From: an uncultured Pseudomonadota bacterium | GTDB taxonomy: Bacteria; Pseudomonadota; Alphaproteobacteria; RF32; CAG-239 | DNA: 60,347 nt | NCBI GenBank assembly: GCA_902793695.1 | Contig: CADBEI010000005.1 | Coordinates: 1-60,347 of the forward strand | Direction of reading: 5' to 3' | In this document: in pieces, positions 19,269 through 24,736 of the stretch | How the letters are laid out: each line of letters begins with the position of its first letter | Numbering within the stretch: position 1 is the stretch's first letter | Program-made: the position numbers and the translations under genes | The notes under the pieces: model-generated | The model's input: only the letters and a program-made list of their open reading frames with translations | Told to the model about the DNA's origin: nothing | Database searches by the model: none

Positions 19269-20171
19269 ATGAGTAATCGTACTGATCTTGTCGTATACGA
19301 AAATAAATCCAATTTACCGGTCGTTGTCGACGATGACGGATTGCATCGCTATTTGCAACAAATAAAGCAATTTCCGGTATTGAGTCCGGAAGAAGAAATT
19401 AACTTGGTGCGACAATTCAAAGAAAAAGGCGATTTACACGCGGCTCAAAAGCTGATTACTTCGCATTTGCGGCTGGCGGTTAAAATTGCGCTGACCTATC
19501 GCCGCTACGGTTTGCCGACGGCGGACTTGATTTCTGAAGCCAACATCGGTTTGATGCAGGCAGTAAAAAAATTCGACACTAATAAAAATGTCCGTCTTTC
19601 CACTTACGCCATGTTGTGGATTAAAGCGGCTTTGAACGATTTTGTTTTGCGTTCGTGGTCACTGGTTAAAATCGGCACGGTGGCGGCACAAAAAAAACTG
19701 TTTTACAATTTGGGTAAAATCAAGGCACGTCTCGGTTTGTACGACAATAAAGAACTGGCACCGAGCGAAGTCAAACAAATTGCCCATGAGTTGGTGGTTG
19801 ATGAAAAGGACGTGGTGGAAATGAATCGCCGTATCGGCGGCGACAGTTCGCTCAATGTTGCAGTCGGGTACGATGATGACGCAGTTGAAGCCATCGATTT
19901 ACTCGCCGATAAATCGCAAAATATTGAAGGCAGTTACGCCCGCCGCGAGGAAGCCGAGTTAAAACGTCGTATTCTGTTTCAGGCACTATCAAAACTTAAC
20001 GACCGCGAACAATATATTGTCAAAAATCGTATGCTGACCGAAACTCCGGAAACTTTGGATGAAATCGGCGAGAAATTCCAAATCAGCCGCGAAAGAGTGC
20101 GCCAAATTGAAAAACGCGCTTTTGAAAAACTTTCGGACGAAGTTAAGCAATCAATGGCCGCCGCCGAATGA
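19269..20171 (+). CDS. rpoH: RNA polymerase sigma-32 factor
   Basis: SHLRL; RSWSLVKIGT..AQKKLF RpoH box; SRERVRQIE. Confidence 0.95.
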   Translation: MSNRTDLVVYENKSNLPVVVDDDGLHRYLQQIKQFPVLSPEEEINLVRQFKEKGDLHAAQKLITSHLRLAVKIALTYRRYGLPTADLISEANIGLMQAVKKFDTNKNVRLSTYAMLWIKAALNDFVLRSWSLVKIGTVAAQKKLFYNLGKIKARLGLYDNKELAPSEVKQIAHELVVDEKDVVEMNRRIGGDSSLNVAVGYDDDAVEAIDLLADKSQNIEGSYARREEAELKRRILFQALSKLNDREQYIVKNRMLTETPETLDEIGEKFQISRERVRQIEKRAFEKLSDEVKQSMAAAE

Positions 20172-21013
20172 GTACGGTTTTCGAACAAATTGTCGCCGAA
20201 TTATCAGCCGCCGGTATTGATGCTCCGCGTCTGGAAGCCCGTTTGCTGATTGCCTCCGTGCTCAAAAAAGCGCCGACGCTGGTGTTTGCCGACACAACAC
20301 TGAATGACGCACAACTTGCAAAACTTAATGCTTTACTTAAACAAAGATTGCAGCATAAACCTCTCGATAAAATTTTAGGACATCGCGAATTTTATAAGTC
20401 AGATTTTATGGTTAACGAGAACGTATTATCACCGCGGCCGGATACGGAAATTTTGGTGGAAGAAGCGCTACGATTGTTGCCGGATAATAATGTGAAGATT
20501 TTGGATTTGGGTACCGGCAGCGGTTGCATTATCGAATCGCTCTTGGCAGAACGTCAAAAAGTGTCCGGAGTTGCGGTCGATATTTCTGCCCAAAGTTTAG
20601 CCGTTGCGCAAAAAAACGCTGAAAATCTGGGAATAAGCAAGCGCTTACAATTCATTCAGGCCGATTGGTTTGCCGATGATTTTATCAAGCGAATCGGTGA
20701 GAAATTTGATATGATTGTCAGTAACCCGCCGTACATTCCGACAGCCGATATTTCCACTCTTGAACCGGAAGTAAAAAATTATGACCCGAGAGCTGCACTC
20801 GACGGTGGTAAAGACGGGTTCGACAGCTATAAGCGAATCGCCGCAATCGCACCGAATTTATTGCAAGACGGCGGCTATATCTTGCTTGAAGCCGGAATCG
20901 GACAGGCAAAGCAAATTGCCGAAATATGCGAGCAAAACGGCTTAAAGCATATCCGTACGGTTGCCGATTTGAGCGGTATTGAACGTTGTGTTATTCTACA
21001 AAAAAATAAATAG
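20168..21013 (+). CDS. prmC: Release factor glutamine methyltransferase
   Basis: PRPDTE, LDLGTGSGCI, SNPPYI and ALDGG motifs. Confidence 0.96.
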   Translation: MSTVFEQIVAELSAAGIDAPRLEARLLIASVLKKAPTLVFADTTLNDAQLAKLNALLKQRLQHKPLDKILGHREFYKSDFMVNENVLSPRPDTEILVEEALRLLPDNNVKILDLGTGSGCIIESLLAERQKVSGVAVDISAQSLAVAQKNAENLGISKRLQFIQADWFADDFIKRIGEKFDMIVSNPPYIPTADISTLEPEVKNYDPRAALDGGKDGFDSYKRIAAIAPNLLQDGGYILLEAGIGQAKQIAEICEQNGLKHIRTVADLSGIERCVILQKNK

Positions 21014-21163: not shown

Positions 21164-21715
21164 ATGAAAAAAATCAATAATAATAAATTTCGCGGCAATG
21201 CCGTATATTCTTTAAATTATAAATTTGACAGCGTTTCTCCGGCCGGAAAGTGCAGCGGCACCGCGCTTGATTTGATTAAACGCTATAACGAATTGGCAAA
21301 AGAAGCCCAAAATAACGGCGATTATGTCGGTATGGAGGTGTTTCGCCAGTATGCCGAGCACTATCGCAAAATCGTAACCGAAATCAACGAGCGCAAATAT
21401 CAAGCGCGCGATAATCAAAACAACAACTGCGGAGATAATACCGCAACCGAAAACGGTCAGACGGAAACCGCCGAACCGGTAAATAACGGTTTGGTGGAAA
21501 CCCAAAGTGCCGAACCGACAGCTGTCGCAAGCGAAACTCCGGCTCAAACGACAGAAACCGTGCGTAAACCGCGCCGAACCCGCGCATTTACGGTTATTGA
21601 CGCCAGTAATTCCGCCGAATCGGCAGCCGAAACCGCTTCTTCCGAAACCGAGGCCGAAGCTAAACCGCAACGTCGCCACTATACGCGCAAGCCCAAAACG
21701 ACAGCTGAAGCATAG
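21164..21715 (+). CDS. DUF4167-domain protein
   Basis: FDS..P.GK..G.A..L..RY..LA..A...GD.V..E...QYAEHY motif; conserved position after prmC. Confidence 0.85.
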   Translation: MKKINNNKFRGNAVYSLNYKFDSVSPAGKCSGTALDLIKRYNELAKEAQNNGDYVGMEVFRQYAEHYRKIVTEINERKYQARDNQNNNCGDNTATENGQTETAEPVNNGLVETQSAEPTAVASETPAQTTETVRKPRRTRAFTVIDASNSAESAAETASSETEAEAKPQRRHYTRKPKTTAEA

Positions 21716-21751: not shown

Positions 21752-22177
21752 ATGAATGAGCTGGAAATTGCACGACAAATTGCCGTAAATGAGGACGTGT
21801 CAACGCCGCCTGACAGCGTGGTTTTATACAGTATCAGCTATCAAGCAACCGACGAAAACAAACGTAAAGCCTTGCGCTTTTTAGCCGAACATTCGGGGTT
21901 TTATACCCTTGATGATACTACCTGTGGCAAAAAACTGATGGCACTCGGTTTAGAAACAGGTAATGATAATCCGAATCCGGAACTGCTGAAAATTTGGGCA
22001 ACGGCTTCGCGGCGTTTCATTCTCGCGGCTTCCGGCAATATTACCGCATTTGTTGACAACGCCGACAAACGAAGCACCTTTGTTTCGGTAGAACTGCCGC
22101 TGATTTTGCAAAACGATAAAATCAAATTGATTAACGGCACGGAAAAACATAAATTTGCCGCGCAATTTCAGAGATAA
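21752..22177 (+). CDS. ADP-ribosyl cyclase (CD38-like)/NAD+ glycohydrolase domain protein
   Basis: VLYS, YTLDDTTCG, IWATASRRFILAASG and DKRSTFVSVEL parallel CD38 LLWS, FTLEDTLLG, FWKTVSRRFAEAA and DKNSTFGSVEV in the same order. Confidence 0.72.
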   Translation: MNELEIARQIAVNEDVSTPPDSVVLYSISYQATDENKRKALRFLAEHSGFYTLDDTTCGKKLMALGLETGNDNPNPELLKIWATASRRFILAASGNITAFVDNADKRSTFVSVELPLILQNDKIKLINGTEKHKFAAQFQR

Positions 22178-22701
22178 TGCCAATGCCTTTTTATCTTGTC
22201 ATCGGCAATATTTTTTCTTTGTTATCCGCAATTTGCATTGCCGTTTCGGTCATTAAGAAAAACAAAAATGATTTGATTTGGTGGCAGATTATTGATGTGA
22301 TTTTTTGCATTTTATCCAACATCGCACTTTATACTTATGCAGCTTTAACCACCAATACCGTCTCGCTTATCCGCAATATTTTGGCATATAAAAACAAGCT
22401 CAGCAAAAAACTGACTTTTATTTTAGTGGTTTTGTGCATTATCGCCGGACTATGGGCCAACAACCGCGGCATTATCGGGTTGTTTCCGATTATTGCTTCG
22501 GCCAGTTACACAATCTTGATGCACACCACCAACAACGAACAACAGATGCGTTATGCTCTGGTTTCAAATCTGGTGTTGTGGTTTATTCACGATTTCTACG
22601 TTCAGGCCTATCCTTCGGCAATTATGGATATGGTTTTGAGTCTATGGACAGTGTTGCAGATTTTTCAAAACCGCAACAAATTTACCGACAAAGCGAACTA
22701 A
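22177..22701 (+). CDS. YgjV-family inner membrane protein
   Basis: About 6-7 TM helices; SLIRN, LFPIIAS and R.....N...W..HD...AY motifs; start overlaps the upstream stop (TAATG). Confidence 0.8.
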   Translation: MPMPFYLVIGNIFSLLSAICIAVSVIKKNKNDLIWWQIIDVIFCILSNIALYTYAALTTNTVSLIRNILAYKNKLSKKLTFILVVLCIIAGLWANNRGIIGLFPIIASASYTILMHTTNNEQQMRYALVSNLVLWFIHDFYVQAYPSAIMDMVLSLWTVLQIFQNRNKFTDKAN

Positions 22702-22913
22702 TCCTTGCTCGCCTGCACATTTTCCTCAATAATCGAAATAGCATCTACGGGGCAAGAGTTAACCGCTTCCTTCACTTTATCTTCGACTCCGACCGGTGTT
22801 TCGGCATAAGCCTCGGAAATACCGTCGGCATTAAAGCGAAAAACTTCCGGCGCCGTGCTGACACACAAACCGCAACCGATACACAAGTCCGGATTGACAT
22901 ACGCTCTTTTCAT
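22698..22913 (-). CDS. Single-cluster ferredoxin
   Basis: MKRAYVNPDLCIGCGLC...APEVF...CPVDAI; own AAGGA RBS; in frame with the upstream ORF. Confidence 0.88.
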   Translation of the reverse strand: MKRAYVNPDLCIGCGLCVSTAPEVFRFNADGISEAYAETPVGVEDKVKEAVNSCPVDAISIIEENVQASKD

Positions 22914-22962
22914 AAAAAATCCTTTCGCAAAAAAACATTTCGCGAAAGGATATAATTGCTGT

Positions 22963-24069
22963 TTACCGCCCCTGGTCTTTTGCACAAATTTCTGCGTTGT
23001 CGGCGTTACAACATTGGTAAATCTTGCTCCGCGCGGATTGGCAGCTCGCGGTGACGGATATTCGTGATAGGCTGTCTGATTTTTGGCCTCGACGAATCCG
23101 TCAACCTTATTTTTTTCGTTCATTATCTTTTGCGCCATTTGTTCGGCCGATTTATCGTTTATTTGCAAAATCGCATTGTAAACATCACGCGGAGTTATAA
23201 ACATCTTGGACATATATTCTTTAGCATATTTATAACCAACCTTAAGTATAGTTTGATTGCTGACGGTGGAATTTTTGGTAAAATATATTTTCGGATTTTT
23301 GGCGTAATGTCCTTTTTTGCCTCTTTTGCCGGTTATATTGGCGTTGCGATTTTTATCAGAAATATCGCGCGCCGGATTATACAGATATTTCTTTCCGAAA
23401 TCCGTAACATATTCTTTTACCAATTCAAGCGGTCCTTTTCCGCCAATCAGAATATGCCCGTCGGGAGCACCGAATCCTTTACCGAATACGGCTATACTGC
23501 CGGGAACTATTTTATTCATATGTTCATAAGTTGATTTTACTCCGACAACATTCGGACATTCATCCAACCACTTTTCAGCTTCATAAGCGGACTGACCTTC
23601 CAGCCACGCAATCGGATTGGTTCCGGACAATATATGCTTTATCCATCTATAACATCTTTCACCCGGTCCGTTTGCCTCCATCTTGGCAGACCTTTCCAGC
23701 TCCAGTCCCAAGCTGTCGGTATTGGCCAACAACATATCTTCGCCGTCCATTATATAATTTTTAAAACCTTCGGACAATGCGCTGGTATAGTGGCTTGTCT
23801 CGGTTATTTTGCGCAAATTTTCAATGTCTTCTGATGTCAATTCGTTGTATCCGCCGCTGCTTTTTTGCAGATTCTTCCACGTGGTTACCATGTCCATACC
23901 GACTTGCGTTTGTTCCCACGGCATAGCAACGTCTTCGCTTTTCGACTTATCCAGCTGAGCCAACATTACTTCGGCAAAATTTTCATCGCTGTTGTGCTTT
24001 GACTTTGAGTGTAGCGACAACAGCCAAAGTCACGGCAATATATTTAGCAAAACCGAAATCCATACCCAT
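22963..24069 (-). pseudogene. NlpC/P60 (CHAP/amidase-like) protein with frameshifts near both ends
   Basis: AGGAG-led ATG 24069 stops at 23983. The main frame carries ERCYRWIK...G.SAY...PGSIAVFG...GHILI. An out-of-frame ...QGR-TAA lies at 22963-22965, before a hairpin. Confidence 0.55.
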
Positions 24070-24211
24070 TTCAATCTCCTTTTTGTCAAAAATAACATAT
24101 TCTACAATAAAATGCAAGTTTTTTCGTAGCATTTTTGCAAAAATATCCGCTTGAATTTTTCCGTAAATGTTTTATAAAAAATTTGTGTTCTTTTGTAACG
24201 GAGAAAGCAAA

Positions 24212-24736
24212 ATGAGTTTGACCGACATAAAAAAATCAATTCGCAATATTCCGGATTATCCGAAACCGGGGGTCCAGTTTAAGGACATTACCACCGCCAT
24301 GAAAAATCCGCAGGTTTTTAAGGAAATCATCGATATGATGACGGAGCATTTCCGCATGGAGAAAATCGATTATGTGGTCGGAATCGATGCCCGCGGATTT
24401 ATTTTTGGTGCGGCGTTGGCATATAAACTCGGCTGTGGTTTTGTGCCGGTGCGCAAACCGGGGAAACTGCCGGCGGACACAATATCCGAGGAATATGCTT
24501 TGGAATACGGCACGGATAAGCTCGAAATCCATAAAGATGCCCTAAAAAATGGCGACCGTGTGATTATTGTCGATGATTTAGTAGCCATCGGCGGCACGGC
24601 GGAAGCTGCGGCAAAATTAGTAAAACGCCTCGGAGCCGATATCGTATCATTTGCTTTTGTGGTTGAATTGATCGCACTCAAAGGACGTGATAAATTAGCA
24701 TCTTTAGCCGATGTTTATTCTTTGATTAAATTTTAA
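24212..24736 (+). CDS. apt: Adenine phosphoribosyltransferase
   Basis: [31 protein letters not shown] and VDDL.A.GGT motifs. Confidence 0.96.

Follow-up and report, generated by a model that had tools for sequence, protein, structure and literature searches.

We identify a near-core, apparently vertically inherited, probably cytoplasmic and partner-free family of proteins with the ADP-ribosyl cyclase (ARC)/CD38 fold in a family of gut Alphaproteobacteria. Standalone non-toxic ARCs were already known; a family of this distribution and inheritance is new. Our favoured reading, which we hold with moderate confidence, is that the ARC protein is a cytoplasmic, slow or regulated Nac-like NAD(P)+ glycohydrolase/cyclase, and that the YgjV-family membrane gene found immediately behind it in the window (the whole analysed stretch of 60,347 nt) is unrelated to it and was inserted there once. 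The basis for this reading is a fold model, residue conservation, the distribution of the gene, its synteny, purifying selection and the restriction of the YgjV neighbour to a single branch.

The features of the locus are as follows.

19269..20171, forward strand: sigma-70-family factor gene, which we take to be rpoH-like; overlaps prmC through ATGA
20168..21013, forward strand: prmC (PrmC_N, E 6e-15); member of the conserved run closed by ARC
21164..21715, forward strand: DUF4167 gene (PF13763, E 1.6e-15), 36 nt 5' of ARC
21752..22177, forward strand: ORF A, ARC/CD38-fold protein by fold model and residue conservation; 141 aa, standalone, no signal peptide
22177..22701, forward strand: ORF B, YgjV-family membrane protein; 174 aa (PF10688, E 1.6e-19)
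24167..24736, forward strand: apt-like phosphoribosyltransferase gene, beginning 1,466 nt past ORF B

The layout described in the original prediction is present, with both ORFs, the TAATG overlap at 22175-22179, and prmC and DUF4167 upstream.

A modelled ARC/CD38 fold with a conserved active site

ORF A had been described as ARC-like, and this is right: the resemblance is weak in Pfam (ADP-ribosyl cyclase PF02267, E 0.015, below the Pfam cut-off) and clear by structure. NCBIfam gave no match to ORF A or ORF B, and phmmer with ORF A gave ARCtox (9RO8; E 6e-4) and then CD38 entries. An AlphaFold2 model built from an alignment of 40 sequences (pLDDT 91.9) superimposes on Tac1 (9OUF; Z 12.3, rmsd 2.9, 122 residues aligned), on ARCtox (9RO8; Z 11.4, rmsd 3.1, 114 aligned) and on CD38 and Aplysia cyclase (Z 8.1-9.0). 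All 50 matches listed in the structural search were ARC/CD38 entries, and Foldseek with the same model gave an E-value of 1e-5. The model therefore confirms a two-lobed ARC/CD38 fold for ORF A. The ESM Atlas additionally returned unnamed clusters of 136-144 aa and one ARC cluster at 0.88, which we treat as a lead only.

According to the accessible sections of PMC12605009, the catalytic residues of ARCtox are W273, E299, W323 and E356; in our alignment these correspond to Y26, D54, W82 and E114 of ORF A. Alignment to 9RO8 and CD38 gives the following set of positions.

ORF A active-site equivalents: Y26-S27; T52-L53-D54-D55-T56; W82; S86; S108-T109-F110; catalytic E114

Across 94 distinct ARC sequences of the family (duplicates by C-terminal sequence removed), E114, W82, S86, S108, F110, T56, C58 and G59 are invariant (94/94). 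Two catalytic positions carry conservative changes: position 26, the first-Trp site, is Tyr in 93 of the 94 sequences, and position 54, the second-acid site, has Asp in 77 and Glu in the other 17. A signal-peptide-like N-terminal hydrophobic stretch was found in none of the 94 at the threshold used. Family members are about 140-165 aa long, and no longer fusion proteins turned up, which is weak evidence.

ORF A shares with Tac1 and ARCtox the minimal two-lobed fold, the size, the catalytic Glu and the second Trp. However, it is only 20-22% identical to them, has two of the four catalytic positions substituted, carries no LXG, PAAR, RHS or CdiA trafficking domain and no adjacent immunity gene, and lies at a fixed housekeeping locus. 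With CD38, CD157 and Aplysia cyclase it shares the fold, a TLDDT motif resembling the CD38 signature TLEDTL (as given in the available part of PMC3329556), and a nearly identical STF-SVE motif round the catalytic Glu. Unlike these enzymes it is roughly half the size and cytoplasmic, with one conserved Cys in place of a disulfide scaffold.

ARC is near-core in the family and under purifying selection

Of 150 genomes sampled from the window's gut alphaproteobacterial family, labelled RF32/CAG-239 in GTDB, 130 carry the ARC gene, mostly in single copy; in a second sample, which overlaps the first, 164 of 199 family genomes do. The genomes are alphaproteobacterial MAGs from rumen and gut, one being Candidatus Scatocola faecigallinarum. 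Outside the family the gene is rare, with 4 carriers among 397 other Alphaproteobacteria genomes. Within the family, genus g23 has ARC in 20 of 43 genomes, and ARC is absent behind clpB in those ARC-negative loci where downstream DNA is visible; ARC is therefore dispensable. No divergent or remnant ARC was detected near clpB in ARC-negative genomes (best E 1.4), with several of the 24 loci ending at or near clpB.

Pooled dN/dS for ARC was 0.090 (47 pairs), compared with 0.143 for prmC, 0.031 for rpoH and 0.027 for asnS at the same loci, and ARC is under purifying selection. In a quick ARC tree, which has many unresolved forks, the labelled sequences of genera g6, g13 and g7 cluster, and inheritance in the family is apparently vertical. 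Viral or mobile spread was considered for both ARC and YgjV and rejected, as no viral copies of either were found: IMG/VR contained no relative of ARC (59 pattern matches, none confirmed) or of YgjV, and phage records contained no ARC. A plasmid search gave one weak ARC match.

Standalone ARC relatives of 140-190 aa occur sporadically outside the family, and more distant relatives carry fused RHS, SLH, ankyrin or RTX domains. One close standalone relative lies in a distant, high-GC alphaproteobacterium (locus L160, G385:C374, 187-768); together with the ankyrin-fused protein P0141 it shows that the ARC subfamily extends beyond the gut family. Some genomes of genera g6 and g19 hold second, divergent ARC-like copies. 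The database proteins P0153 and P0157 have Asp at the catalytic Glu position and a changed first motif, and are possibly inactive paralogues.

In the small shares of two metatranscriptomes that were searched, one 212-nt RNA contig (~93% identity) lay over part of ARC and two contigs over parts of YgjV, DNA carry-over being possible; none of them spanned the ARC-YgjV junction, and we give these contigs no weight for expression or co-transcription.

ARC ends a conserved run of housekeeping genes

We compared the neighbours of ARC in 80 GTDB loci, the best of the 98 confirmed; a few of them share a genome. The gene directly 5' of ARC was clpB in 35 loci and DUF4167 in 27; 12 loci had a HAD phosphatase there, 2 a metallophosphoesterase, and the remaining 4 another gene or a contig end. 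This spectrum points to an ancestral order prmC-DUF4167-phosphoesterase-HAD-clpB-ARC, from which different genes dropped out in different lineages. Across the family, DUF4167 is the neighbour that has stayed with ARC most persistently. The original prediction had placed the ARC-YgjV pair in the position usually held by clpB, which does not agree with the 35 loci where clpB itself directly precedes ARC; in the window's own genome clpB lies on contig C44, suggesting that clpB left and ARC stayed. The window shows no GC anomaly and the neighbours are housekeeping genes. Promoter and terminator scans gave signals at chance level. Transcription of ARC together with the prmC-DUF4167-(clpB) run is probable.

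The 3' side is far more variable. In the best 80 of the 98 loci, the genes following ARC fell into 48 clusters, 4 loci had none, and 53 of 76 downstream genes were on the opposite strand. Such scattered and mostly opposite-strand genes argue that ARC loci have no immunity gene in common, and an immunity gene may lie elsewhere in the genome. Imm74 was matched in none of 151 genomes, in a search whose control also matched nowhere. The ORF upstream of the outside ARC homologue in L160 had an Imm74-like look, for which Pfam gave no support.

The proximity of apt, 1.5 kb from the pair, had been taken as a hint of nucleotide salvage. The distance holds in the window, but apt is found in the retrieved ARC flank at 9 of the best 80 loci, and it is not part of an ARC module. 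In two sister lineages that have no YgjV (L038 and L039), apt lies directly 5' of DUF4167-ARC after a local rearrangement.

Between YgjV and apt, on the reverse strand (22698-24020), the window contains a 440-aa ORF in which a ~370-aa protein and a 71-aa ferredoxin are joined in frame; in loci L034, L035 and L037 the two are separate genes. The window is without ~49 nt, stop included, a 14-bp hairpin is located at 22919-22951, and the 5' end of the gene appears out of frame. Pfam gave no match for the ~370-aa protein, whose Cys/His pattern we take to suggest a CHAP/NlpC-like hydrolase.

The ARC-YgjV adjacency is limited to one branch

ARC and YgjV had been proposed as a translationally coupled two-gene module and a candidate undescribed system. 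The TAATG overlap on which coupling was proposed does exist, but its ATG differs from the conserved YgjV start. An ATG at 22183, 5 nt past the ARC stop, is common to all aligned YgjV-adjacent loci, while the TAATG form is seen in the window, L034, L035 and L175 and is absent from L036, L037 and L040 (3 of 7 aligned loci). Across 63 YgjV proteins Met3, rather than Met1, is nearly invariant. From these alignments the conserved start is probably the ATG at 22183, giving a protein of 172 aa. Among 920 co-directional gene pairs of the window's own genome, counted from rough ORF-based gene calls, a 1-nt overlap occurred 47 times and a 4-nt overlap 43 times. Since such overlaps are common and the shared YgjV start is the second ATG, we give the overlap little weight.

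Conservation of the pair was tested in four data sets (the 150 genomes, the GTDB loci, the trees and the metagenomic YgjV loci) and rejected in view of how rarely ARC homologs are adjacent to YgjV genes. Both genes occur in 20 of the 150 genomes, adjacent in none of the 20, the nearest being 22 kb apart (G134), and 110 of the 130 ARC-positive family genomes have no YgjV match. YgjV lies directly 3' of ARC in 5 of the best 80 of 98 GTDB loci, all of them within the 7 closest to the window. ARC was present in 2 of 56 metagenomic YgjV loci, 45 of which had at least 450 nt upstream, and both carry a YgjV 91% identical to that of the window.

The six adjacent sequences (five GTDB loci and the window's own genome) form one side of a branch in both the ARC tree (SH-aLRT 93) and the YgjV tree (SH-aLRT 90), which is consistent with one insertion of YgjV behind ARC. 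In this branch YgjV is under purifying selection (dN/dS 0.115), and none of the 6 sampled members has lost the pair. However, the five GTDB loci of the branch have retained the block of ferredoxin, large gene, apt and glgA just as well, so that the retention of ARC with YgjV is ordinary synteny. A chance pairing, named as a fallback in the original prediction, fits best, and we do not consider ARC-YgjV worth pursuing as a conserved defence or salvage system.

YgjV is a patchy accessory gene

The identification of ORF B as a YgjV-like membrane protein was correct: it matches PF10688 (Imp-YgjV) over residues 9-164 with 70.7 bits, against a cut-off of 23.5. Its model (pLDDT 87) has seven main helices, consists almost entirely of membrane helix and shows no sensor domain. 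A fold comparison with SemiSWEET and PnuC had been suggested, and the best full-length structural match is indeed PnuC (4QTN; Z 9.5, rmsd 5.6, 162 aligned), but it is tied with short helical matches and a Z of 9.5 is within the chance range for helical bundles. Foldseek against PnuC gave a probability of 0.96 and an E-value of 0.38, SWEET13 was also near the top of the structural matches, and no sequence match of YgjV to a solved structure was found. A PnuC/SWEET-like role of YgjV as a small-solute facilitator is therefore a lead offered by the model.

In comparison with the PF10688 family and the seven-helix facilitators of PnuC/SWEET type, the YgjV described here is a Pfam member that behaves as a patchy accessory gene. 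It is present in 26 of the 150 family genomes with varied neighbours, and the window's own genome has a second copy on contig C10; PF04973 had no match in this genome. Likely, YgjV is an unrelated accessory transporter gene that reached the ARC site in one branch. In another locus (L119; G125:C15, 1486-3437), a divergent YgjV lies directly 5' of a nadD/M-like gene and pncA, an independent contact between YgjV and NAD genes, which makes a niacin-type substrate for YgjV worth considering.

NAD metabolism and alternative readings

In the window's own genome pncA, pncB, nadE and a nadD/M-like gene are clustered on contig C19 (15808-23960), presumably with a sirtuin-like gene nearby, judging from its motifs; ARC does not adjoin this cluster, and NadA and PnuC had no match in the genome. 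We searched for partners of ARC in 60 hand-picked family genomes, 24 ARC-negative and 36 ARC-positive, which are kin and not independent. pncB, searched with a single-protein query, was found in 2 of 24 ARC-negative and 10 of 36 ARC-positive genomes, and in none of the 20 ARC-positive genomes of g23; nadE in 14 of 24 and 19 of 36; PnuC in 1 of 24 and, as a weak match, in 1 of 36; and macrodomain genes in 6 of 24 and 5 of 36 (11 of 60 overall, in a patchy pattern). None of these candidates tracks ARC. Both functional schemes put forward in the original prediction, a signal synthase with a membrane effector and NAD breakdown with a transporter, are thereby weakened. Moreover, nadE had no match in 17 of the 36 ARC-positive genomes. 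This speaks against ARC being an NADase that is fast and constitutive, and also against its having a set position in a pncA-pncB route. Missing nadE makes the spending of NAD look costly, and the substrate might therefore be another nicotinamide nucleotide.

Two further observations were made in these searches. Of the 60 genomes, which are near-complete, 27 have no nadE match, and most of them also lack a match to the pncB query and PnuC; direct import and an amidated route are candidate routes. A 719-aa protein (G000:C35, 1844-4003, reverse strand) has an N-terminal macrodomain, and the 638 residues scanned gave no other Pfam match. A search with TIGR01993 had matches in 145 of 151 genomes and was too unspecific.

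CD38-family enzymes are known to accept NMN and NR and to perform base exchange. It is conceivable, although in our view unlikely, that ARC is a family-wide salvage or house-cleaning enzyme of this kind, an N-glycosidase or base-exchange enzyme acting on NMN, NR or a related pyridine nucleotide, with YgjV incidental. The pncA-pncB-nadE and nadD/M-like genes of a genome in which NadA and PnuC had no match would suit such an enzyme, as would the HAD phosphatase found directly 5' of ARC in 12 of the best 80 loci, which is weakly pyrimidine 5'-nucleotidase-like (E 2e-13, below cut-off). However, ARC follows none of pncB, nadE and PnuC across genomes and does not sit beside the NAD salvage operon.

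A latent NADase, acting as a dormancy or abortive-infection switch that only a trigger would activate or that an unlinked protein would inhibit, is quite unlikely. Selection on ARC is housekeeping-like and the protein has no secretion domain, shared neighbour or extra sensor domain, even though its toxin-like fold with an intact catalytic Glu, its distant RHS-, SLH- and RTX-fused relatives and its loss in about half of genus g23 speak for such a switch.

We regard as very unlikely a young functional pair limited to the one branch, in which ARC would free nicotinamide and YgjV would move nicotinamide or its riboside across the membrane. Such a pair would account for the tight spacing, the retention in 6 of 6 members, the low dN/dS of YgjV, its best full-length match to PnuC and the L119 arrangement; but the downstream block is kept equally well, 110 of 130 genomes have kept ARC with no YgjV match, dozens of unrelated contexts contain close relatives of YgjV, and the match to PnuC is within the chance range. 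Finally, a Thoeris-like antiphage pair, with ARC signalling on infection to YgjV as a membrane effector, is extremely improbable: type VII Thoeris, whose cADPR activates membrane SLATT effectors (available text of bioRxiv 10.64898/2025.12.03.692087), resembles ARC-YgjV only in the idea of an NAD-derived signal with a membrane protein, whereas the latter has no TIR, SLATT or Macro effector, no sensor domain in YgjV, no match of ARC or YgjV in PADLOC at E 0.1, no GC anomaly and a housekeeping neighbourhood outside any defence island, and pairs a near-core syntenic gene, unlike patchy defence genes, with a neighbour that is not conserved.

A proposed Nac-like activity for the gut-family ARC

We return to our favoured reading, that of a Nac-like glycohydrolase/cyclase. 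By homology to CD38 and Tac1, Trp82 and the TLDDT loop would position NAD; nicotinamide would then depart, with Glu114 stabilising the ribosyl intermediate, which could be released as ADP-ribose or cyclised to cADPR. Asp54 (77/94) and Tyr26 (93/94) would likely lower hydrolysis and toxicity, and this predicted lower toxicity fits the life of ARC without an immunity gene. Asp cannot be the whole account of a low toxicity, since 17 of the 94 sequences keep Glu54 and yet have no partner. In CD38, substitutions of E146, Asp included, are reported to raise cyclase activity.

Closest in kind is Nac1 of Actinophytocola oryzae (accessible text of PMC12356396), which is likewise standalone, has no immunity gene and keeps the catalytic Glu, while the second acidic residue is usually changed. 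Nac1 has Ala at the second-acid site, makes cADPR and ADPR about equally, needs no immunity protein and can be purified from E. coli, and Tac1 without its second Glu released cADPR (same source). This loss in Tac1, the behaviour of Nac1 and the CD38 E146 substitutions together favour a Nac-like reading of the gut-family ARC. Counting against low toxicity, most Tac1 active-site mutants were still toxic on overexpression, according to the same portions of PMC12356396. The family ARC also differs from Nac1, which has a Sec signal peptide, in having none, in its residues at the first-Trp site (Tyr) and the second-acid site (Asp or Glu), and in being near-core across a whole bacterial family. Its role is most likely that of a modest NAD-derived signal or of NAD turnover, and its origin may have been toxin-like; our searches found no receptor for an ARC-made signal.

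Accounts from 2025 present bacterial ARC domains mainly as secreted toxins, and one, in its accessible sections, called them exclusively tied to secretion domains (PMC12605009). One secreted non-toxic cyclase has been shown, in a study whose available text does not settle what cADPR does in bacterial physiology (PMC12356396) and whose main text does not contain the words 'Alphaproteobacteria' and 'clpB'. Among the titles and abstract beginnings searched, none describes the gut-family ARC or an ARC-YgjV pair; figures and supplements may list members.

It is possible, although rather doubtful, that the whole gut family domesticated a CD38-like toxin fold as a vertically inherited cytoplasmic cADPR synthase. 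If so, canonical cADPR would serve these bacteria routinely as a second messenger outside immunity, its synthase being encoded by a near-core gene that ends the clpB run. A conserved, partner-free cytoplasmic ARC provides a small soluble protein for probing the role of cADPR in bacteria, and one genus of the family offers natural ARC-positive and ARC-negative genomes to compare.
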